A stretch of 64,000 bases of DNA, taken from IMG/VR virus record IMGVR_UViG_3300045996_003734, positions 32,001 through 96,000 of that record; one strand, given 5' to 3'. Position 1 is the first letter of the stretch. Every line of letters starts with the position of its first letter. A model generated the notes under the pieces. It was given only the letters and a program-made list of their open reading frames with translations, did not search any database and was not told the DNA's origin. A program made the translations under genes and the position numbers. This DNA comes from a virus. Shown piece after piece: positions 8,560 through 43,871 of this stretch.

Positions 8560-9126
8560 ATGGCCAAGGGGAAAGGCGGCAGCGTCGGCTGCTTCGGACT
8601 TCTCATCTTCACGCTGCCCTTCTGGTGGGCGTACGACAAGTGTACGGGCGGCGACGAGCGGCGCGCTCAAGAGCAGATCGTGGCAGAGACCCAGCAGGTC
8701 GCTCGCCAAGCAGCTGCCGCCGCCCAGGTGCGCCGAGTCGCGCAGGCGAAGGCCGAGCAGGAAGCTGCCCTAGCCGCTGCAAAGGTCGAGGTGCGCCGCG
8801 GCCAACTCGCCCAGCTTGCGGCCTGGAAGCCCTACCAGCGCTCGCAGGCACTCGCGCAGTGCTTCAAGTCGGAGTGTCCCAACGGCGTTCCGGACGAAGC
8901 GGCGCTGCTCGAGTCGGCCAAGAGCGACGCCGAGCGGAAGCAGCTCAGCGCGATGAAGGGCCAACTCGAAAAGGCCCAGGAGCGCGCCGAGAAGGCGGCC
9001 GCTCGCTCGAGCGCAGCGCTTCGGTGCTGCGACGGGTCCCTCTCGCCGAAGTGCACCTGCGGCAACGCTCGCGGCGGCTGCTGCTCGAAGCACGGTGGCG
9101 TCTGCGGCTGCTCTGCCGACGATTAG
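8560..9126 (+). CDS. Moron membrane-anchored protein with a Cys-rich CCSxHGGVC tail (DUF3761-like)
   Basis: N-terminal TM, coiled coil, [29 protein letters not shown]. Confidence 0.75.
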
Positions 9127-9440
9127 GGGTCGAGCGGACAGAACAGCGCCGGCAACCCCGGCAGCGACGGGAGCGCGGGCAGCGCCAGCCCCGGCAGGCC
9201 GAATCCCGGCAGAGGCAGCGACGGGAGCCCAGGGAGTGCCGGCAGCGACGGCACCCCAGGGAGACTCGGTAGCGCGGGCAGAGCGAGCCCCGGCAAGCCG
9301 AACCCTGGCAGCGGCAGCGACGGGAGCCCCGGGAGCGGCGGCAGCGCTGGCAAGCCCGGCAGCGCCGGGAGCGAGGGTAGCGCCAGCCCCGGCAAGCCGA
9401 ACCCAGGCAGCGGCAGGGGCGGGAACGCGCAGCGGCTCAC
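9123..9440 (-). CDS. Pro/Leu/Gly repeat protein with terminal cysteines
   Basis: GTGA coupling to the upstream gene; repeat units vary largely at third codon positions. Confidence 0.65.
9144..9416 (-). repeat. 99-bp tandem coding repeat, about 2.75 copies
   Basis: 33-aa unit beginning [14 protein letters not shown]. Confidence 0.9.
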
Positions 9441-9763
9441 GACACCGTGCCCGAAGCGCTACCGGTGGCGGTGGTTGCTCCGGTCTGCGCCGCTGCTGTG
9501 CCCGTCGTCGATACCGCGATCCCACTCGCCACCGTGGCCGACACGGACGCGTTGTCCTTGATGTGCGGGATGATCTTTGCGACCGCGCGAGCTAGCACGG
9601 CTAACTGCTCCAGCGCATTCGCCTTCGCTACTGGGTTTGCGTCGAGACTTGAGAGGTCGTTGCCCTCCACCAGCACGTCGAAGACCTCGCCTGCGGCACC
9701 GGTGCTCGTCGTCACGACTCCGGTCAGCGCGTTGATTACGATCGACCCTTCAACCATTGCCAT
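9437..9763 (-). CDS. Small spike-adjacent protein (possible spike tip)
   Basis: AGGAG RBS; Thr/Gly-rich C-terminus; directly follows the spike gene. Confidence 0.6.
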
Positions 9764-9774
9764 GGCGAGAACTC

Positions 9775-10503
9775 CTAGAGAGGGCTCACGAAAACGCTCG
9801 GGGAAGGCGGGGACGCGGGCCCAGCAAGTAGGGGGATGCCCGTCTCCGCCGAGGCGCCCAGGTAGACGTTGCCCTTCAGCATGATCTTCGGCGCCTGCAA
9901 CGTGAACTCCCCCGGCTTCGCGCGGAGGAAGGTGTCGGCATCGAGCAGCGCGACGAGGCCGTCCTCCTTGGTGAGCGAGAGCTGGTAGCCCTCGCCGTGG
10001 GTGATGCTGATGCTCTCGTTGCCGTCGGTGGGGTCGACGATGATCGCGTGCGCCTTGGTGGGCACGCCATCGACGAACGCGTAGGGCACGTAGAGCGTCA
10101 TGACGCTCTCCTCCGCCGCGTTGTCATCGAAGCTTAGGAAGCCGCCGCCGTAGCTGCTCAGCCCAGTGGTGCCGACCTTAGGAGGGAGGGTCCGCTGCAA
10201 GCGCAGGTCGCGGGCAACCAGCGGAATCAGGCCCCCACCCTTGCGCACGGCGATGCCTTCGGCGCCTACTTGCTTACCGCCAACGTCGGCCGGCGGCCGC
10301 GGGCGCCAGACCACGGGCCCGGTGTACTGCTCCTTGTCGATGAACTTCTCGCCAGGGCCTTCGCCGAGCGGGTCGTCCACGTCGCCGACAGCGCCCTCCC
10401 CGCCCCACAGCACCGCGCTGTGCTCGCCCACGACCGTCGAGCCGATCACTCGCACGAAGCTGAGGGCCCAGTCGCTCAGGTAGGAAACCATCAGAGCGCC
10501 CAA
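9775..10503 (-). CDS. Baseplate spike (gp45/gpV-like)
   Basis: Follows the hub gene; beta-strand-repeat C-terminus (FTLQAPKIMLKGNVYLG). Confidence 0.7.
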   Translation of the reverse strand: MGALMVSYLSDWALSFVRVIGSTVVGEHSAVLWGGEGAVGDVDDPLGEGPGEKFIDKEQYTGPVVWRPRPPADVGGKQVGAEGIAVRKGGGLIPLVARDLRLQRTLPPKVGTTGLSSYGGGFLSFDDNAAEESVMTLYVPYAFVDGVPTKAHAIIVDPTDGNESISITHGEGYQLSLTKEDGLVALLDADTFLRAKPGEFTLQAPKIMLKGNVYLGASAETGIPLLAGPASPPSPSVFVSPL

Positions 10504-11630
10504 ATCCCCCGACCGCAGCAGGTCAACGTGGTGGTGTGGGAACGGTCAGCGGAGCCGGCTTGCTTGCACTGGTACACGAGGTAGGCGCCGTTCGCCCCTC
10601 CCGCGATGTCCACGGACACTGCTGCGACGGTGTCGATGCCGTACGCGACGCGCTGCGAGCCGGTCCAGTAACTCAGCCCGTCGGTCTCGAGCACCCACGA
10701 GTCCGAGGCGAGCCGGCGCTTCATGAGCTCCCTTCGCGCTCTCGCCACGGCCTGCGACTGCGTGACGATCGACTCGTCGATGACGATGGCCGTGCGGTCG
10801 AGCACGGGATCCACGCCCGCCAGCACCGGGTCGGAGGCCATGAACTTGATGCGGGCCTTCTGCTGGTCTCGCCCGCCGCCCACGCCGAAAACCCACAGCT
10901 GGGCCGGCACATCCTCGAAGTCCTCGGTCTTCGTCGCCGCGAGGAGGTTGTTGGTGCGCCCGTCAATGCCCCGGTGGGCGGTCATGAAGTAGCTCGCGCT
11001 CTGCTCGTCGTTCGGTGCGCCGATGACGATCCGACCGTCCGGCGCGTCCCACATCATGAGGTGAAAGCGCGAGAGGTGCCGCTCGGCGAACGACCACACG
11101 CTCTCCGGAGGATGCGGCCGCGCCTCTTCTTCCTTCATGGCCGCGAGGTCGAGCGTCGCCGTCCCACCCTTCCCCTTGCCCGTCACGAGGTCGCGCGCCA
11201 GGTCCGTGGCGAAGATGAAGTCGTCGCGCGTGAGGCCCATGCGCGCGAAAGCCGCGAGCACTACCGCCTCGAGTGTGGTGTTGCTCACGCCGATCTTGGA
11301 GTCCACCGCCGTGAACATCGCGTCCGCCAGCTTGGTGCGCACGATGACCTGAACGGTGCCGCCGGCGTCGGCCGAAACAGCCAGGTTCCGCGTGAGCAGC
11401 CGTCCCGTTATCCGCGGCGTGTCGTTCACGCTGATCGCGAATTGCCCGCCGATCGCGAGCGCTTCGCGGATCGCCGACCAGGTCCCGTCGTCGCCGAGCT
11501 CGAAGCGCGCCGCGCTGGGTCCAGTGAGGTCCGTCAGGATCTCGTACTGCGTGGCGCGGTCGACGACGATGCTGAAGCCGCCGCCGCGCACGCTCTCGAT
11601 GAGCACCGTATCTCGGAGGCGTCTGGCCAT
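10491..11630 (-). CDS. Baseplate hub protein (Mu gp44/gpP-like)
   Basis: PPESVWSFAERH...MMWDAPDGRIVI, ARARRE motifs. Confidence 0.85.
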   Translation of the reverse strand: MARRLRDTVLIESVRGGGFSIVVDRATQYEILTDLTGPSAARFELGDDGTWSAIREALAIGGQFAISVNDTPRITGRLLTRNLAVSADAGGTVQVIVRTKLADAMFTAVDSKIGVSNTTLEAVVLAAFARMGLTRDDFIFATDLARDLVTGKGKGGTATLDLAAMKEEEARPHPPESVWSFAERHLSRFHLMMWDAPDGRIVIGAPNDEQSASYFMTAHRGIDGRTNNLLAATKTEDFEDVPAQLWVFGVGGGRDQQKARIKFMASDPVLAGVDPVLDRTAIVIDESIVTQSQAVARARRELMKRRLASDSWVLETDGLSYWTGSQRVAYGIDTVAAVSVDIAGGANGAYLVYQCKQAGSADRSHTTTLTCCGRGIWAL

Positions 11631-31308: not shown

Positions 31309-32856
31309 CTAGTAGCCGCCGGTCGCGACGCCCTTCCGCGCCCCCCGCGCCGGCACCTTGGGCTTGCTCGCCGGCTGCTTGTCCGCGAAGTCCCAGTTGT
31401 GCACGGTCGAGTCCACCTGGTCGTCCTCGGCGCCGTCCACGCCCGTAAACCGCTCGTGCTCCTTGAGGTACGGGCCGATCCACTTGCCCTCATCCCAGCA
31501 CTCGAGTTCGCGTAGCAGTTTCTGCAACGCCACCGAGTCCAGGGTGGGGTCGTGGTCGAGCGGGACCTGGAAGCGCCCTTGCCCCCAAGCGGCAGCGGCG
31601 GCTTGCGCGGCTGAGAACTTGTCGACGGTGCGCGGCACTTCCACGAGCCGGAGCTTCGGATTCAGGCGGCGGAGGTTCTGTGCGACGCTCTGCCCCTGCC
31701 CGCCCTGGGTCTCGATGACGATGGGCACGCCCGGCCAGCTCGCCTGCAGCACCGCCAGCACGCGCACGACGTCCGGCGTCTCGAGCTGCATGCGGTAGCA
31801 GCGCAGCACCTGGCCGTAGAGCATGCCGGTCAGCACCACGCCCTCGGGGCTTTCCCAGGGCGCTCGCCAGTAGCAGCAGATGGTGATGGCTGTGTGGTCG
31901 GCGCTCGTCTTGGCGGTGCCGGCGGCGTCCACGGCGATGACGATTTGCCGGCCCTGCCGGATGGCCTGCCCCATGTAGCGGCGCGGCTCGCCGAAGACCG
32001 AGCCCCCCTTGGGCCGCGGCCGCTGCATGTACTGCGACCACCAGTTGTACTCCCCGACGACAGCGCGGATTTGAAGCAGCGCCTTCAGGTCGTAGCGCGC
32101 CTCCCAGAGCGGCTTGCCGTGCTCGTCGATGGCCGGCAGCGAGACGAACTCGAACGCCGGCATGTTCTCCGGGTCCTCCTCGCAGCGCTTCCGGATGCGC
32201 GCGAGCAGGTCGTCGTCGTTCCACCTCTGATGAAAGACGATGACGGATGCGCCCGGCTCGCGACGGGTGAACTGGTCGCCGATGAAGCTCTGCCAGACGG
32301 CTTCGCGCACCGTCTCGCTCTCGGCCTCCGCGCGGTTCTTAAAGGCGTCGTCGTTGAGCAGGAGGTCGAGGCCCTTGGAAACCAGGCCGCCGTCGCGCCC
32401 CACAGCGACGAACCCCCCGCCGCCCGCCGTCTGCCAGTGCCGCACGCTCGCGCTCGGGTCCCACTTCTTGCCGGGGCCGGAGCGCTGGAAGTCCACGCCC
32501 GCGTCGACCGCGCGCTGCCGCGCGATGCGGCTCTGGTCGTCCGCTACGTCCTGGCTGTAGGTCGAGTAGACGACGCGCTTGGAGGGCTTGTACTTGAGAA
32601 ACCGCGCGGCCCCGTGGAAGACGATCTCGGACTTGCCGTGCCGCGGCGGCGCCTCCACCCCGGCGTAAACCTCCTCGCCCGCTTGGATGCGGTCGAAGAG
32701 GTCACACATGCGCGAGAGCGCGATGGGCGATGCGTAGCGCGGCGAAGCCCACGGGATGAACTCGAGCAGCTCCGTGCGGCCGCGAATCTCTTGGGTCCGG
32801 CGCCGCGCCAGCGCCCGCTGGTACGCCTCACTTTTTTGGTGCTGCTGGAGGTCCAA
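31309..32856 (-). CDS. terL: Terminase large subunit
   Basis: APPRHGKS Walker A, LLLNDD Walker B, HQRW, IAVD, DDQVDS. Confidence 0.95.
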   Translation of the reverse strand: MDLQQHQKSEAYQRALARRRTQEIRGRTELLEFIPWASPRYASPIALSRMCDLFDRIQAGEEVYAGVEAPPRHGKSEIVFHGAARFLKYKPSKRVVYSTYSQDVADDQSRIARQRAVDAGVDFQRSGPGKKWDPSASVRHWQTAGGGGFVAVGRDGGLVSKGLDLLLNDDAFKNRAEAESETVREAVWQSFIGDQFTRREPGASVIVFHQRWNDDDLLARIRKRCEEDPENMPAFEFVSLPAIDEHGKPLWEARYDLKALLQIRAVVGEYNWWSQYMQRPRPKGGSVFGEPRRYMGQAIRQGRQIVIAVDAAGTAKTSADHTAITICCYWRAPWESPEGVVLTGMLYGQVLRCYRMQLETPDVVRVLAVLQASWPGVPIVIETQGGQGQSVAQNLRRLNPKLRLVEVPRTVDKFSAAQAAAAAWGQGRFQVPLDHDPTLDSVALQKLLRELECWDEGKWIGPYLKEHERFTGVDGAEDDQVDSTVHNWDFADKQPASKPKVPARGARKGVATGGY

Positions 32857-38233: not shown

Positions 38234-38447
38234 GGCCGCCCTCCCGCTCCAAGGCCTCGGCCACGTCCGCCATGGCCGCCAGGCGCTCGGCCCAGACGCG
38301 AGCGTTCGCCGGCGACAGGTCGAGCCCGGCGCCGTTGCTGAACTCGAGGATCACCTTGCCCGGCTCCGCCGACAGGTGGGCTGGCATTACGGACGGCCGA
38401 GCGGCCGCGCCTTGCCGATGGGCGGCCAGCTGAATGACCTTACCCAT
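38226..38447 (-). CDS. Hypothetical protein coupled to the integrase stop
   Basis: GGAGG RBS inside the int 3' end; 8-bp overlap. Confidence 0.6.
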   Translation of the reverse strand: MGKVIQLAAHRQGAAARPSVMPAHLSAEPGKVILEFSNGAGLDLSPANARVWAERLAAMADVAEALEREGGRG

Positions 38448-39981
38448 GGCGACGGGCCTCCTCCGCGATCTCCGCGACCGCCCCGTCCACGTCTCCGGCC
38501 AGGACCTTCTCGAGTGCGCGCGCTACCGCGAGGCCGGGCCGAAGTGGTAGGCTCGGGTCAACATCGGCCAACCGCTCCAGGCGGTGGACCCGGAGCAGGT
38601 TGTCGCGACGAGCCCCAAAAGGATCGTCTAACGAATCGTCTAGACCGCCCGCCGAGGCGACCGAGGGCCGACTCTCGCCCTCCGAATCAGCGCCAGAAAC
38701 GGCATTTGGGGACCCTGCGCCGCCGGCGGGAGAATTCGAATCCCTCCCTCTCCGCAGCAGTTCCTCCGGTGAAACCGCAGATTCACCGGAGGCGTTAGAC
38801 GATTCATAGACGAATCGCTGCAGGCTCTCCGGCAGAGGCGCGAACGGATCGCCGATGCTGGCGCCCAGCGCCTGGTGTCCGCGGCGGATGTAGATCTGCG
38901 TGGTCTTGAAGTCGGAGTGCCCAGCTCGCTCGCGAATCATGTTGTCCGTGTCTCCCCGCATGGCCATGTAGGTGATGCCCGTTGCTCGCAGGTCGTGGAA
39001 GCGCAGCGCGCGCACACCCTTGCGGTTCTTCTTGTGGAGCGCCGGCCGGTCCACGCCGGCCGTAAGTAGGTCCTCACGGAGCACGTCGTACGGTCGCTCG
39101 ACGATCTCGAACACCGACTCTCGACTGCGCCGCCGGTACATGGCCTCGAGCATGGGCCTTAGGAGCGGCTCGATGCTGAAGTGACGGGAGCGGCCTGTCT
39201 TCGTGTACTCGTGAAAGACTTGGGCCTTCGAGTCGAAGGACCGGTTCACGCGGACCATGCCGTGCGCTACGTCCACCCCGAGGCGCCAGAGCAGCGCGAG
39301 CACCTCACCCGGCCGGCAGCAGCAGTAGACGGCCACGGCGTAGAGGGCGCGCCGCTCTCGCGGCACCTCCGGGCACGCTAGCAGCTTCTGGAGCTCGACC
39401 GGGAAGAGCCACTGCAGCTCCACCTCGCCCGGCGGGTCCGGCGGCACTACGCCCTCGGCAGGGTTTCGGGACAGCAGACGGAGCTCGCGCTTCTTGGAGT
39501 GCGCCAGGTCGCGGAACATCTTGGAGGCCACGGCCCAGCAGTTCTGGGCGGTCTTGGCGCTGAACGTGACCTCGCCGTCCTGGGCCTTCTCGTCCAACCA
39601 CTGCACGAGGTCCCGGAGGTCGTCCGTCGTCACCTCGTCCACGTGCTTCTTGCCGATGATGGGGCTGATGTGGAGCCGGTACCGGTAGAGGTCCGAGCGC
39701 AGGGACTTCTTGCTCGAGCGCGACGGGATCCAGAGACGCTCGAAGTATTCGTCGCACGTCGGGCGCGTGCTGATAGGCGTCTTATCCTGCGGGGGCGACC
39801 AGACCTTGCCCTTAGCCGCCAGGCTCAGCTTGCGGGCAACCTCGCGCGCGTCGTCGTCCGACAACGCCGGATCGATCGGGATGTACGGCCGGACCGTCTT
39901 CCCCTCCGCGTTCTTGGCTGTGATGCGCGCGTACAGCGTGGTCGCGTTGACGCGCCAGATTGTGCCCTTGGTCTTGGTCAT
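38440..39981 (-). CDS. int: Tyrosine integrase containing its own att site
   Basis: R (CRPGE), K (TKTG), HDLR, GH and Y (TTQIY) catalytic set. Confidence 0.95.
   Translation of the reverse strand: MTKTKGTIWRVNATTLYARITAKNAEGKTVRPYIPIDPALSDDDAREVARKLSLAAKGKVWSPPQDKTPISTRPTCDEYFERLWIPSRSSKKSLRSDLYRYRLHISPIIGKKHVDEVTTDDLRDLVQWLDEKAQDGEVTFSAKTAQNCWAVASKMFRDLAHSKKRELRLLSRNPAEGVVPPDPPGEVELQWLFPVELQKLLACPEVPRERRALYAVAVYCCCRPGEVLALLWRLGVDVAHGMVRVNRSFDSKAQVFHEYTKTGRSRHFSIEPLLRPMLEAMYRRRSRESVFEIVERPYDVLREDLLTAGVDRPALHKKNRKGVRALRFHDLRATGITYMAMRGDTDNMIRERAGHSDFKTTQIYIRRGHQALGASIGDPFAPLPESLQRFVYESSNASGESAVSPEELLRRGRDSNSPAGGAGSPNAVSGADSEGESRPSVASAGGLDDSLDDPFGARRDNLLRVHRLERLADVDPSLPLRPGLAVARALEKVLAGDVDGAVAEIAEEARRHG
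38623..38814 (+). other. attP-type site: tRNA-Ser 3'-end core (38735-38755) with flanking arm-type repeats
   Basis: TTCGAATCCCTCCCTCTCCGC; ATCGTCTA x2 (38623, 38635) inverted relative to TAGACGA x2 (38796, 38807). Confidence 0.82.
38763..38792 (+). terminator. 11-bp hairpin just downstream of the tRNA 3' core
   Basis: CCTCCGGTGAA-8-TTCACCGGAGG; no U-tract. Confidence 0.55.
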
Positions 39982-40307
39982 CAGACCGCCTCCCGGAAGC
40001 CGCGGCGAAGGAGCGCCGCCTCGATGGGGTCGATGGTCGGAGCGGGCGGTGGCGCGGAAGCGGGCGCGACCCGCAGCACTGGCTCGACGCGAGCCTGCTC
40101 GATGTAGCGGTGCATGGCCGCGCGCTCCACGAGCACCCGGCCCGCGCGCTTGAACCCCGGCAGCGTGCCCTGGCGGACCAGCCGGCAGTGGGTCTGCTTG
40201 GGCAGCGGCGACGTGTCCTGGTCGTAGTACCGGGGCCCGTCATTCTGCTCGAGTCGGTCGGCGACCGCGTCGGCGAGCTGGTGGAGGAGGGCGCGGAGGT
40301 CGCTCAC
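39981..40307 (-). CDS. xis: Excisionase-like HTH protein
   Basis: RLVRQGTLPGFKRAGRVLV wing motif; coupled to int. Confidence 0.75.
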   Translation of the reverse strand: MSDLRALLHQLADAVADRLEQNDGPRYYDQDTSPLPKQTHCRLVRQGTLPGFKRAGRVLVERAAMHRYIEQARVEPVLRVAPASAPPPAPTIDPIEAALLRRGFREAV

Positions 40308-40525
40308 CCTTCGACCTCCATGTACTCGAACCCGCACCCAAGGCAGGTCACGTCGGTGATGCCGTCCCTGTAGCAGCGGCTTATCTGCACGTGCTCGCAG
40401 GTGACGAACGGGCCGCGCAGCCGGAACGCCTTACGCTTCGGCTTGGCCGCCAGTCCGAGCTGCGCGTCCAGACGCCGCTCCACCTCGGCGTGGTCGACGT
40501 AGTCCAACGGCATCGGTTGCATCAC
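40304..40525 (-). CDS. Small hypothetical protein
   Basis: CxH..CxxC; GTGA overlaps. Confidence 0.5.
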   Translation of the reverse strand: MMQPMPLDYVDHAEVERRLDAQLGLAAKPKRKAFRLRGPFVTCEHVQISRCYRDGITDVTCLGCGFEYMEVEG

Positions 40526-40674
40526 GAGGTGCTCTCCTGCTCTGCGCGCTTGAGCCGCTCCTCGGCCTCGCGCTGGTAGTTGCTCATCGCCTGGTCGAGG
40601 TGGATGCGGCCGCTCTTGGTCCAGTAGGCCCAGAGCTCCCGGCACACCGCGACGCGCTGCTCGTCGGTCAGCAT
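40522..40674 (-). CDS. 50-aa hypothetical protein (not in ORF track)
   Basis: MLTDEQRVAVCRELWAYW...; coupled. Confidence 0.5.
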   Translation of the reverse strand: MLTDEQRVAVCRELWAYWTKSGRIHLDQAMSNYQREAEERLKRAEQESTS

Positions 40675-40791
40675 TGCGGGTCCCCCGTTAGGAGCCAGGC
40701 GAGCACGCGCTTCGGCAGCTCTACCCGCTCGCGCTTGTTCTCGGGCCCGTCCCCGACGGTGAGCACGATCGCTGCGGGCCAGCCCGAGCCG

Positions 40792-41037
40792 TCAGCGCGC
40801 CGCACCTCGCGGATGCTTCGGGTCGACGTGTGCCCGAACGGGTTCGCGTCGTCGCAGACCCAGCCGTCCAGCTCGAACGGCCCGGCGCTCGGAGCGGCAG
40901 CCGTTGCAGACACGGGAACGACAGCCGGGGTTGGCGAAGTGGTAGTCCGTGAGCGGCCACCACTCGTCGCAGCGGTTGCAGCAACGCTCAATGATGCCGT
41001 CTTCGGCGGGTCGATCGGGGACGCGCTCCCAGAGCAT
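40792..41037 (-). CDS. Small Zn-finger protein
   Basis: GGAGG RBS; CNRC...CNGC. Confidence 0.5.
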   Translation of the reverse strand: MLWERVPDRPAEDGIIERCCNRCDEWWPLTDYHFANPGCRSRVCNGCRSERRAVRAGRLGLRRREPVRAHVDPKHPRGAAR

Positions 41038-41050
41038 GATCGCCTCCGCA

Positions 41051-41770
41051 CTAGGCCGCCCTCCGCGCCACGCCCTCGGCTGCCCCACCCCGAGCGGCAT
41101 CGTCCCAAGCCTGAACGCAATGACGCCGGAGGGCGTCAGATTCAGTGCAGGGGCGCAGCGGGGCAGGCTGCGGCGCGCAGCGGAATGCCACAGCATCGGG
41201 CAAAAAAAAGGGCGCCGCGCGGTCGATTCGAACGACCTCATTCCCCGCTTCACCGGCCGGCATGGCGGGGACCCGGCTCAACAGACCGGTGACCTTCCCA
41301 CAGGTCGAGCGCGCGTCTTGTGGTGCTAAGTGCGAGGTGGCCAGTTCCAGCAGCCTGGCTTCGGCGTCTCGCTGAAGGGAACGTCCGTGTTGAAGAACTG
41401 TCCCGTCGGGTTCAGGATGCAAAGGCCCACGCTGTCGTTGGGCCCGAAATTCACCTGCGTCACCACCGCCGCTCTCGGCGCCGGCAGGTACTCGCCGCCC
41501 GGCGTTCCGTAGCTCTGGTAGTGCACGATCCGTCCCACGCTCGGTTTCTGGTCCATTGGTTTCTCCGTTCAGCTCGAGCACGCACAGCGCCTCGAGAGCA
41601 GTCATGCGGGCGCGGCCGAGCTCGAGGTCACGCAGCGTCCGGACGCCGATGCCGAGCTCGTGGGCGGCGCGCTCCTGCGACCAGCCGCGGGCAACGCGGG
41701 CTCGACGGAGGCGACCGGCAGCCGCCCGCCTCGCCCCACCCCGCAGGGTGAACAGCTTTCCCTCAGACAT
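41051..41770 (-). CDS. XRE-family HTH regulator (domain ends near 41560; the frame stays open beyond)
   Basis: LRRARVARGWSQERAAHELGIGVRTLRDLELG. Confidence 0.65.
   Translation of the reverse strand: MSEGKLFTLRGGARRAAAGRLRRARVARGWSQERAAHELGIGVRTLRDLELGRARMTALEALCVLELNGETNGPETERGTDRALPELRNAGRRVPAGAESGGGDAGEFRAQRQRGPLHPEPDGTVLQHGRSLQRDAEARLLELATSHLAPQDARSTCGKVTGLLSRVPAMPAGEAGNEVVRIDRAAPFFLPDAVAFRCAPQPAPLRPCTESDALRRHCVQAWDDAARGGAAEGVARRAA
41210..41315 (-). ncRNA. tRNA-like cloverleaf, anticodon GUU, 35-nt variable region
   Basis: D stem GACC/GGUC, anticodon loop CUGUUGA, T arm GGUCG-UUCGAAU-CGACC, G73-CC, followed by T8. Confidence 0.7.
41326..41556 (-). CDS. Small conserved phage protein
   Basis: PSVGRIVHY...PRAAVVT...WNWPPR pattern; GGAG RBS. 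Confidence 0.8.
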   Translation of the reverse strand: MDQKPSVGRIVHYQSYGTPGGEYLPAPRAAVVTQVNFGPNDSVGLCILNPTGQFFNTDVPFSETPKPGCWNWPPRT

Positions 41771-42080
41771 GGTCACCTTGAAGCAAGCGCTCGCGGACGT
41801 GCTCGACCGCTGCCGCGAAGCGCTCGTCCTGGAGCCGAGCCCGAGCGGCGCGCAGCAGGGCGGTAGCCGCCCCGCCCGTCCGACCGAGGGCCACGGCCAC
41901 CTCGGCATCGCTCATGACGGTGTGGTCGTGGAGCAGCAGAGCGGCGACGTGGCGAGCGAAGCCGAGGCTCCGGGCGATGCGAGGGCCGCGGAGGTCGACG
42001 ACGGCGATCCCGAAGTGCTCAGCAGCCCGCTCGATGATGAGCGGAGCCGGGAGCAGACGGAGGGCTGGTGCGGCTCCCAT
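41763..42080 (-). CDS. DnaA C-terminal-like HTH protein
   Basis: AAEHFGI..DLRGPR...ARHVAALL...S..EVA.ALGR. Confidence 0.7.
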   Translation of the reverse strand: MGAAPALRLLPAPLIIERAAEHFGIAVVDLRGPRIARSLGFARHVAALLLHDHTVMSDAEVAVALGRTGGAATALLRAARARLQDERFAAAVEHVRERLLQGDHV

Positions 42081-42260
42081 TCAGCCCTCCCCGCGGTTGG
42101 AGAAGCCCTTGAAGACGGCCGGCTTCACCTCGACCAGCTCCCGGAGCGGCTGCTCGAGCACGCGAGCGCCTTGGGCCTTGGCCACCTGGGCCTCACGGGC
42201 GAACACCAGCGCGAAGCGGTGCTCTCCGGCTACCTCGGTTTCGGCGAGCCAGGACTGCAT
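42081..42260 (-). CDS. 59-aa hypothetical protein (not in ORF track)
   Basis: MQSWLAETEV...; abuts both neighbours. Confidence 0.45.
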   Translation of the reverse strand: MQSWLAETEVAGEHRFALVFAREAQVAKAQGARVLEQPLRELVEVKPAVFKGFSNRGEG

Positions 42261-42533
42261 TTAGGCCGCCTCTTTGCGGTCGCAGACCCGGAGGTAGCGG
42301 ATGAACTCCCGCCGCAAGCGCCCGCTCCGGAGGACGGCTCGGAGGTTCAGCGGGGCGGTGCCGGCCACCCAGGCCTGCATCGTTCGGAGGCTGACGCGGC
42401 ACCAGCGCGCGGCATCGGACTGCGACGCGCCCGCCTTGGCGATGGCGTAGCGCAGCGCATGCGCAGAATGCTGCGTAACCTGTTGCTCCGACCAGGTTAC
42501 CCCGATGTGCGGGATGACCGTACGCTTGGCCAT
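42261..42533 (-). CDS. HTH regulator (CII position)
   Basis: ASQSDAARWCRVSLRTMQAW. Confidence 0.7.
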   Translation of the reverse strand: MAKRTVIPHIGVTWSEQQVTQHSAHALRYAIAKAGASQSDAARWCRVSLRTMQAWVAGTAPLNLRAVLRSGRLRREFIRYLRVCDRKEAA

Positions 42534-42534
42534 G

Positions 42535-42774
42535 TTAGGCAGCCCCCTTGTCCGGCTCCCGCTCGGAAGCAGCCGGCTCACTCCACCACGCCGGATCGAT
42601 TGGAACCTCCGGATCGTCCTTCAGCTTTTGACTGTTCTCGGTCGTCGGCGCCGTGCCGCCGCGCGCGAGCCTCGACAGTCTCGGTTGAGAGATACCAGTG
42701 CGGCTCGCGAGCCGTTTCTGGACCCCTCGGGTTTGGAAGGCTTTTGCCAACGTTTGAGAGGCCCGCGAATGCAT
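42535..42774 (-). CDS. Cro-like HTH protein
   Basis: QKRLASRTGISQPRLSRLARG; divergent from the repressor. Confidence 0.8.
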   Translation of the reverse strand: MHSRASQTLAKAFQTRGVQKRLASRTGISQPRLSRLARGGTAPTTENSQKLKDDPEVPIDPAWWSEPAASEREPDKGAA

Positions 42775-42787
42775 CAGCGTCGCAAGT

Positions 42788-42817
42788 ATGCACTCGCGGA
42801 TATATCCGTCAACGCAA
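42788..42817. promoter_or_regulatory. Tandem operators (cro/cI side)
   Basis: ATGCA-CTCG-CGGAT and ATCCG-TCAA-CGCAA, 16-bp period. Confidence 0.65.
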
Positions 42818-43486
42818 AAACGGACTACTTGCGTGGAGGCCCCGGAATTTGGAGCATTCGGCGTGCCCGCTCACCCAGGCCCGTTGAAGGCCAAGCCACC
42901 GAAGACACGACCCGCGGGGTGGACCGATGGTCAGTGGCAGTTTCCCAAGCGTCTCGAGGCGCTTGGCGTCGAGTGTGGCTGGGACCCGGCGGAGGTGCAG
43001 CGAATCGCCCAGGTCTCGCAGGCCACCGTCTCGCGTTGGCTGGCATACAAGTCGAAGCAGCCAGATCCGCTTGCGGTGAAGCGATTGGAGATAGCTGCAA
43101 AACGGCCGCCAGGCTGGCTCTTGCGCGAGCCCGACGAGGGAACAACAGCTGCAGCGTCGGGCGTTTCCACGCAACTCGCGCTGCGGCTTGTCCGAGCAGG
43201 CCTGAGCAACGACTTGCTAACTCTCTCGGATGAGGAGCTAGGGGCAGTGGAACGGTTTCGACCTGAGTTGAGAAAGGCGATCTTGGGGATCGTCCACGTG
43301 TACGACGTGCCGCTTGAGCGCGCCGCCGCTTTGGCGGACATCGCCGTGGGCGCTGAGCCATCGATGGTGGGGCATCCGTCGGGAGACGCGCCTTTCTGGT
43401 TTGAGCGAATGGCTAGACGGGTGCCGCCGAGAAAGGAAAGCGGCAGCTTTCCGTCGTCGGGCTCGATAAAAATTCCGAAGCGATAA
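42788..43486 (+). CDS. CI-like XRE repressor (true start probably downstream of the operators)
   Basis: AEVQRIAQVSQATVSRWL HTH; divergent from cro. Confidence 0.78.
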   Translation: MHSRIYPSTQKRTTCVEAPEFGAFGVPAHPGPLKAKPPKTRPAGWTDGQWQFPKRLEALGVECGWDPAEVQRIAQVSQATVSRWLAYKSKQPDPLAVKRLEIAAKRPPGWLLREPDEGTTAAASGVSTQLALRLVRAGLSNDLLTLSDEELGAVERFRPELRKAILGIVHVYDVPLERAAALADIAVGAEPSMVGHPSGDAPFWFERMARRVPPRKESGSFPSSGSIKIPKR

Positions 43487-43536
43487 CTTAGCAACTACGA
43501 GCGGTTATCCGAGGTCGCGCCGCTGCGCACAGTTCT

Positions 43537-43566
43537 ATGCGCTTGCGCATTCATCCGCGAACGCAT
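43537..43566. promoter_or_regulatory. Tandem operators (early rightward operon)
   Basis: ATGCG-CTTG-CGCAT and ATCCG-CGAA-CGCAT, 16-bp period. Confidence 0.7.
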
Positions 43567-43577
43567 ATATCCAAGCC

Positions 43578-43871
43578 ATGCACAGCGCGCTCGACCCCGC
43601 CGCCCTCAGGAAGCTCGCCACGGTCTACGCCGACCGGAAGAGCACCGCTCACCGCCCGATCCACGCTGCCGTGACAGCGGTGCTCCGGGGCGCCTGCCAG
43701 AGCCCGGTGGTCGAGCTCGGCGTGGAGAACCTGCTCGCCCACTACGACGGCAAGGCCGACCTCTGCGACGTCGAGCGCGCTGAGCGGTACCTGGTCGAGT
43801 GCTGGGCTGAATGCGCCCCGCCTGCCCCCGCCGCCGCGCTGCCCTCGGTGGCGTGCGGCTCGCTTAACTGA
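43578..43871 (+). CDS. First gene of the early operon, hypothetical
   Basis: Starts 12 bp after the operators. Confidence 0.6.
   Translation: MHSALDPAALRKLATVYADRKSTAHRPIHAAVTAVLRGACQSPVVELGVENLLAHYDGKADLCDVERAERYLVECWAECAPPAPAAALPSVACGSLN

Follow-up and report, generated by a model that had tools for sequence, protein, structure and literature searches.

A soil actinobacterial phage has a 106-nt gene that is shaped like a tRNA-Asn and carries in addition a fifth arm, a 30-nt hairpin. The element lies on the minus strand, at positions 41212–41317, of a 64,000-nt stretch of viral DNA (the window), which corresponds to positions 32001–96000 of the 109,166-bp IMG/VR record IMGVR_UViG_3300045996_003734 (G000). 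Coordinates are those of the window unless another record is named. The element stands between a gene for a 76-amino acid (aa) protein and the genes that lead to a tyrosine integrase. Its parts are as follows.

41212–41317, minus strand: conserved tRNA-derived module, consisting of GA, tRNA positions 1–73 and C74; the minimum free energy (MFE) fold is a cloverleaf, and three metagenome contigs (X1–X3, below) hold exactly this block
41309–41315, minus strand: acceptor 5′ strand CGCGCGC, positions 1–7; pairs 3-70 to 7-66 are Watson–Crick, C1·C72 and G2·G71 are mismatched
41291–41306, minus strand: D-arm GACC(UGUGGGAA)GGUC, with a 4-bp stem and an 8-nt loop; G18, G19 and A21 in place, U14
41273–41289, minus strand: anticodon arm CCGGU(CUGUUGA)GCCGG, with the anticodon GUU at 41280–41282 and G37
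41242–41271, minus strand: 30-nt extra hairpin, with a 7-bp stem UCCCCGC/GCGGGGA, an internal loop, a short apical helix and the loop GGCC
41221–41237, minus strand: T-arm GGUCG(UUCGAAU)CGACC, a perfect T-arm with G53-C61
41212–41220, minus strand: acceptor 3′ strand GCGCGGC, G73 and C74; no CCA is encoded, and homology to X1–X3 stops at 41212
41202–41209, minus strand: T8 tract after CCC, common to a sister phage genome and outside the conserved module

The minus strand of 41212–41317 reads as a 7/5 cloverleaf with U8, G18G19, A21, U33, G53-C61, the T-loop UUCGAAU, the anticodon GUU and G73. Stems of 7 bp (acceptor), 4 bp (D), 5 bp (anticodon) and 5 bp (T) follow one another at canonical spacing, U8-C9 lie between the acceptor stem and the D-arm, and two of the seven acceptor pairs are mismatched. 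Among the conserved tRNA nucleotides U8, A14, G18G19, A21, U33, purine 37, G53, U54U55C56, A58 and C61, A14 is the only one replaced, by U14. The MFE structure (ViennaRNA) is also a cloverleaf, in which the acceptor stem closes in a shifted register with C1-G73 and G2-C72 paired and G71 bulged. GUU and G73 (at 41213) are thus both present in the standard register, and the bulged register gives a discriminator C. The z-score of the fold energy, −0.83, is uninformative, the DNA being 69% GC.

The body of the element is of the class I type, with its 4-bp D-stem, 8-nt D-loop and A26/G44 pair. The variable region, at 35 nt, exceeds both the 4–5 nt of class I tRNAs and the roughly 10–24 nt of class II tRNAs, and the extra hairpin is placed within one nucleotide of the site where natural variable arms leave the tRNA core. 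The apical 16 nt of this hairpin have no repeat above chance elsewhere in the window. The hairpin was also considered as a second anticodon arm, which was rejected: its loop is of 4 nt and there is no 7-nt anticodon-like loop.

A preliminary description of the locus, made by reading the letters, had listed the four arms, the variable stem, the T8 tract, the acceptor mismatches, U14 and the CCC, and all of these are present in the sequence. It had placed the element at 41210–41315; the element is real, but the unit that is conserved is 41212–41317.

Recognition and conservation of the element

ARAGORN finds no tRNA gene at the element or anywhere in the window, and an Rfam search of 751 nt around it gives no match at the gathering score, nor at E ≤ 10. 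When the 30-nt hairpin is deleted in silico, ARAGORN at its default threshold calls a 75-nt tRNA-Asn(GTT). Two covariance-type models bear on the same point. Model R1 was built from the element alone and run over approximately 950 kb of fetched loci; its best foreign matches are genuine tRNAs, including the tRNA-Asn genes in loci L038, L049, L073, L084 and L179. Model R2 is a general tRNA model built from 33 actinophage and prophage tRNAs and run unfiltered over both strands of the window. It gives the D and anticodon arms of the element the top score in the window (19.8 bits, E 0.003) and the 3′ half 14.6 bits, the two halves ranking first and third among the window's own matches. R2 matches the halves separately, being unable to span the insertion. 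Only two perfect T-arms exist over the full 109-kb record, that of the element and that of a tRNA-Trp in the sister genome. These four independent tests, i.e. hairpin deletion, R1, R2 and the T-arm count, show that the tools miss the element because of the hairpin insertion and not because the fold arose by chance. The initial view, that the RNA resembles a tRNA, has an Asn anticodon and bears an oversized arm in its variable region, is supported.

The 17-mer of the T-arm has ten exact matches. Three belong to ordinary tRNAs, namely the Asn and Ile tRNAs of L179 and the Pro tRNA of L187, and the other matches are in DNA that encodes no tRNA; the phage tRNA-Asn(GTT) in L179 has a T-arm 17-mer identical to that of the element. 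The 18-mer of the anticodon arm has a single match, which is not a tRNA and is taken as chance.

Homologues were found through an index of public sequencing runs, in which four metagenome runs from four studies matched by shared exact words. Three contigs from three studies were aligned to window positions 40900–41900 and compared by counts of differences per block. X1, a soil contig of 6,541 nt, and X3, a soil contig of 6,186 nt from another study, each contain 41212–41317 with 2 differences (2/106), and X2, a freshwater contig of 268 nt, contains 41212–41320 with 1 difference (1/109); none has gaps, and the homologues thus differ at one or two positions only. The spacers that border the block are replaced: over the three contigs, downstream spacers are 166–167 or 98 letters against 85–86 or 20, and upstream spacers 98 or 147 against 170 or 132. 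Flanks that can still be aligned differ by 5–15%. Pooled, the element has 5 differences in 321 positions and the flanks 53 in 728, or about 7% (Fisher P 6e-5). The edges of the conserved island coincide within two nucleotides with those of the tRNA-like unit, with the 30-nt hairpin inside and the T8 tract outside; the T8 tract is replaced in X1–X3.

This pattern is, on the aligned sequences, that of a tRNA gene within a variable spacer context. It contradicts a decaying pseudogene, the fallback that the preliminary description had allowed for. As the block is kept with one or two substitutions and no insertions or deletions amid diverged or replaced flanks, the comparison shows an RNA gene that is discrete, selected and tRNA-derived, neither a pseudogene nor a chance fold, and that has hardly changed across four or more related phage contexts. 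It derives from a class I tRNA that gained, and kept, a 30-nt hairpin at the site of the class II variable arm.

Exact-pattern scans of IMG/VR with 21–23-mers and with a loop-anchored degenerate pattern found 0 copies, and a degenerate pattern gave two matches in JGI metagenomes, both chance matches in non-tRNA DNA. A blastn search of GenBank phages returned nothing for the element alone, and a 451-nt query matched the protein gene only. No copy was found in 401 Mycobacteriaceae genomes, 151 Nocardia genomes and 5 prophage-bearing genomes (557 in total), a result that does not imply absence from the phage's host, which is not identified. No RNA run containing the stretch was found in the index of public sequencing runs.

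Genomic setting and the tRNA slot

Record G000 consists of two colinear, diverged phage genomes of ∼62 kb in tandem, offset by ∼62,150 bp and 72–93% identical by self-comparison, with no host flank. It may be a tandem pair of prophages or a chimeric assembly. The integrase regions of these two sister genomes (G000 8576–10724 and 69928–72331) have no DNA similarity. The element shares its strand with a leftward early operon and occupies the 3′ end of it; the operon has a promoter-like site at 42812–42785. The operon encodes weak helix-turn-helix (HTH) matches, a DnaA-C-like HTH protein and the 76-aa protein of PHROG 2293. This supports the location in an early phage transcript that had been suggested at first reading. 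On the downstream side, the order is the T8 tract, a conserved leader, a small Cys-rich open reading frame (ORF), an HTH_17 excisionase-like gene and the tyrosine integrase gene (38440–39981). The features nearest to the element are as follows.

41326–41556, minus strand: 76-aa gene (PHROG 2293), SH3-like beta-barrel; phrog_2293 E 9e-37, with the stop codon 10 nt upstream of the element
41053–41126, minus strand: conserved leader with GGAGG before the next gene; ∼94% identity in X1–X3, the sequence beyond beginning GATG
40792–41037, minus strand: small Cys-rich ORF, ATG at 41037, read from the sequence; the ORF list had it inside a longer, GTG-started frame

The structure model of the 76-aa protein is a confident SH3-like beta-barrel (predicted local distance difference test, pLDDT, 89.6) with weak matches only to SH3, bL19 and chromo-barrel folds, which gives no functional lead. 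The closest protein homologues are 83–84% identical. The 73-nt non-coding block at 41053–41126, which in X1–X3 stops shortly before an ATG, is probably a leader or a promoter; that it forms a second domain of the element is less likely.

In the sister genome, the corresponding slot holds a bona fide tRNA-Trp(CCA) gene (L082:712–785, minus strand; G000 11311–11384). The slot is bounded on one side by a homologous 76-aa gene and on the other by GCCC-T8-GCCC followed by non-coding DNA of ∼90% identity. Several mycobacteriophage-like genomes also have a tRNA-Trp next to a phrog_2293 homologue, and tRNA genes are found within 300 nt of such homologues in 11 of 160 fetched loci. These 160 loci contain nothing homologous in sequence to the element, and R1 picks up ordinary tRNAs only. 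The closest genomic relatives are two Nocardia prophages with whole tRNA arrays, one of which (L084) has 13 tRNAs. Since the sister genome and the relatives keep ordinary tRNA genes there, the element occupies a phage tRNA gene slot. The recurrence of phrog_2293 beside or inside tRNA arrays hints at a tRNA-related role of the protein.

Several irregularities are seen in and around these slots. The tRNA-Trp of the sister genome is slightly odd, with A8 for U8 and an A5·G68 mismatch. Other irregular tRNAs occur in arrays by phrog_2293 homologues (L057:2759–2834, L086:2376–2452, L083:1966–2044 and L089:1187–1257); some have 8-nt anticodon loops (atcc, tgag) and others cannot be assigned by ARAGORN. 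The GCCC-T8-GCCC sequence is identical in both sisters (window 41202–41216; L082 about 628–642) despite the different upstream cassettes, and neither copy is preceded by a terminator-type hairpin.

For the integrase, the pattern method found no IMG/VR relatives. Within its gene, at 38735–38755, is a T-arm-like near-palindrome that scores only 10.4 bits with R2; in one of the 401 Mycobacteriaceae genomes (L177), 21 nt of it recur exactly towards the 3′ end of a tRNA-Ser(TGA), the match being to the strand that is antisense to int.

Proposed functions

The most likely reading, still a tentative one, is that the RNA is processed as a tRNA, is charged by the Asn/Asp route and serves as a phage-private reader of AAY codons. 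The element would be co-transcribed with the early genes; RNase P and 3′ trimming would release it from this transcript, and the host enzyme would then add CCA. GUU and G73 would bring the RNA into the Asn/Asp charging route, and the charged product would give the phage, while it grows lytically, a tRNA of its own for AAY codons. This tRNA would differ from the host tRNA-Asn by its extra arm and by G37 and might, for example, be refractory to host tRNA-cleaving defences. Anticodon and G73 are the determinants of Asn identity in bacteria (PMC9976931). The position of the hairpin is compatible with a tRNA core, the variable-loop site being the only place where a large addition fits the L-shape; tRNAs engineered to carry an aptamer hairpin in this arm retain their activity in translation (PMC7590224). 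The reading also agrees with the proposal that phages bring tRNAs to make up for those of the host that anticodon nucleases attack (PMC10264068; PMC11555353).

A number of properties weigh against this reading. With U14 the U8-A14 pair is lost, the acceptor top has the C1·C72 and G2·G71 mismatches, and the anticodon loop is CUGUUGA, with G37, compared with CUGUUAA in five tRNA-Asn genes. tRNAs that read ANN codons carry A37, or N6-threonylcarbamoyladenosine (t6A), at this position next to U36. Synthetases of the class II Asp/Asn type approach the tRNA from the variable-loop side, where an arm of 30 nt might be in their way. The U1-A72 pair is absent; C1·C72 stands where the aligned ordinary actinophage tRNA-Asn genes have T1 and A72, and U1-A72 is the determinant for the GatCAB amidotransferase, which converts Asp-tRNA-Asn in the indirect pathway (PMC9976931). 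On account of U14, G37, the 1-72 and 2-71 mismatches and the missing U1-A72, ordinary decoding by the element appears doubtful. Asn codons are ordinary in this phage (AAC 215 and AAT 17 among the 8,233 codons of 14 ORFs, those whose coding signal is clearest), and codon supply alone is therefore no strong motive. As to the conservation argument, a run search by shared exact words is biased towards conserved stretches, and X1 and X3 may be closely related lineages, though their upstream junctions differ.

The same properties can be turned towards a serious rival, possible if on the whole somewhat unlikely, in which the RNA is a non-decoding mimic: a tRNA-like fold kept out of translation that would act as a decoy, a competitive inhibitor or a partner handle, with the extra arm as a binding site. 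Possible partners are a host tRNA-cleaving toxin, a synthetase, an amidotransferase or the adjacent SH3-like phage protein. All 106 nt are highly conserved, yet U14, G37, the two mismatches at the acceptor top and the lack of U1-A72 are expected to hurt decoding and delivery, and this combination would suit a mimic equally well. The recurrence of the phrog_2293 gene beside tRNAs points the same way, and an arms race between phage tRNAs and host tRNases is documented (PMC10264068). The SH3-like protein, however, is only a candidate partner, with a modelled fold that has weak structural matches. Quirky and presumably working tRNAs are common in these arrays, the sister tRNA-Trp with A8 and A5·G68 being one, and a decoy has no need of GUU and G73.

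Retention of these two determinants, together with loss of U1-A72 and of the paired acceptor top that the elongation factor favours, is the basis of a further reading. The element would be a natural five-armed tRNA that is charged, probably with Asp, but does not take part in decoding as usual. As a decoy or an inhibitor, it might target the transamidosome or a host defence directed at tRNAs; alternatively, it might deliver Asp at Asn codons during infection. The extra arm would be a partner handle or a shield. Put in this specific form, the reading is unlikely. If it were true, a charged RNA that does not decode would represent a phage counter-measure of a new kind, or a switch of translation fidelity, in actinobacteria, organisms that often make Asn-tRNA indirectly.

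Two further readings are both improbable. In one, the element is an inactive relic, a tRNA-Asn gene broken by a palindromic insertion that hitch-hikes with recently spread DNA. Failure of the tRNA finders and of Rfam, loss of several conserved positions and the lack of homologues in IMG/VR, GenBank phages and JGI metagenomes would all fit a relic; an element about five times better conserved than its alignable flanks, set between replaced spacers in three other contexts with no insertions or deletions, does not, nor does an insertion at the sole tRNA site that naturally carries an arm. In the other, the fold and the T8 tract would do no more than define where the early operon ends on its 3′ side: RNase P might cleave there, the fold might keep exonucleases off, or transcription might terminate ahead of xis-int. 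The position at the operon end, with T8 next and the separate conserved leader of the following gene after it, is consistent with such a role. Yet T8 is outside the conserved block and is replaced in X1–X3, a simple scan of 40300–43600 calls no canonical terminator, and T8 begins 3–4 nt past the closing helix of a multi-branched fold, whereas an intrinsic terminator has a simple GC-rich hairpin with the U tract 0–2 nt behind it. RNase P, moreover, needs only the acceptor and T domain, which leaves the conservation of the anticodon loop and extra arm unexplained.

Termination in this manner, serine charging and an attachment-site role are poorly supported. A serine-accepting mistranslator, the first of the roles proposed in the preliminary description, would be read by seryl-tRNA synthetase (SerRS) through its long arm and G73, with the anticodon ignored, and would put Ser at AAY codons. 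Both features are present and are named SerRS determinants (PMC7609411; PMC5389517), and class II bodies with non-cognate anticodons exist (PMC3333845; PMC5389517); an analogous reading was proposed for allo-tRNAs and was shown, for leucine, with nematode nev-tRNAs (PMC5389517; PMC3333845). The body, however, is of the class I type: its D-stem is of 4 bp and its 8-nt D-loop lacks the 20a/20b insertions. Natural arms are about half as long as this one. Behind the arm are four unpaired nucleotides, against about one in tRNA-Ser as judged from E. coli tRNA-Ser/Leu/Tyr. G2·G71 stands in place of the G2-C71 used by E. coli SerRS, and the structure is 7/5, not the 8/4 or 9/3 of allo-tRNAs. Serine charging is thus very improbable. 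Least probable of all is that the block is the core of a phage attachment site (attP) copied from a host tRNA-like gene and conserved to match the host: an island of identity between divergent flanks does resemble an attP core, and the sister phages have unrelated integrase regions and different slot tRNAs, but an attP core contains no more than the 3′ part of an ordinary tRNA of the host, and in the element conservation covers all 106 nt, the 5′ half among them; the block was not found in the 557 genomes searched (the host not being identified), the same slot in relatives has ordinary tRNA genes far from any integrase, and the element is 1.2 kb from int with other genes between.

Comparison with known systems

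The tools by which tRNA genes of phages are commonly counted miss this element, and recorded repertoires are therefore incomplete; this touches arguments on codon supply, on escape from host tRNases and on tRNA-dependent lysogeny. In addition, a class I body conserved together with a 30-nt arm of natural origin would mean that large additions at the variable-loop site, as exploited by engineers, are also accepted in nature. The element is small, discrete and easily testable. In the literature searched, no description was found of a phage class I tRNA body with a 30-nt variable-arm hairpin, and the known systems below each share only some of its properties.

The nearest are the ordinary actinophage tRNA-Asn(GUU) genes (for example those in L038, L049, L062, L073 and L084). 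These are likewise phage-borne and in a tRNA slot, with a 7/5 structure, GUU, G73 and no encoded CCA. ARAGORN finds these genes, in which the variable loop is of 5 nt, the acceptor stem is paired throughout and A37 and U1-A72 are present, whereas the element has a 35-nt variable region, G37, U14 and two mismatches at the acceptor top and is missed by the finders.

Class II tRNAs, allo-tRNAs (PMC5389517) and nev-tRNAs (PMC3333845) resemble the element in having a helical arm between the anticodon and T arms, G73 and an anticodon that is not of Ser, Leu or Tyr. These RNAs are class II bodies, or 8/4 and 9/3 structures, with a changed anticodon; the element is a class I 7/5 body with a gained hairpin, and its arm is about twice as long. 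Both its architecture and its D-arm place it outside the allo-tRNA and class II groups. Engineered aptamer-tagged tRNAs (PMC7590224) also have a hairpin grafted in the variable arm and stay active in translation. They are synthetic, built on an allo-tRNA chassis and used in E. coli, in contrast to the element, which is natural.

In tRNA-dependent lysogeny of actinobacteriophages (PMC10865867), there is also a lone tRNA gene near a tyrosine integrase in a temperate actinophage, and sister phages differ in integrase and tRNA. That system requires that attB lie inside a host tRNA gene of matching isotype and that the prophage express its tRNA; the element, by comparison, is in an early lytic operon and has no visible promoter of its own. 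Perhaps tRNA-dependent lysogeny is nevertheless the reason why the two sister phages described here differ in both integrase and tRNA, and this is an attractive sub-hypothesis.

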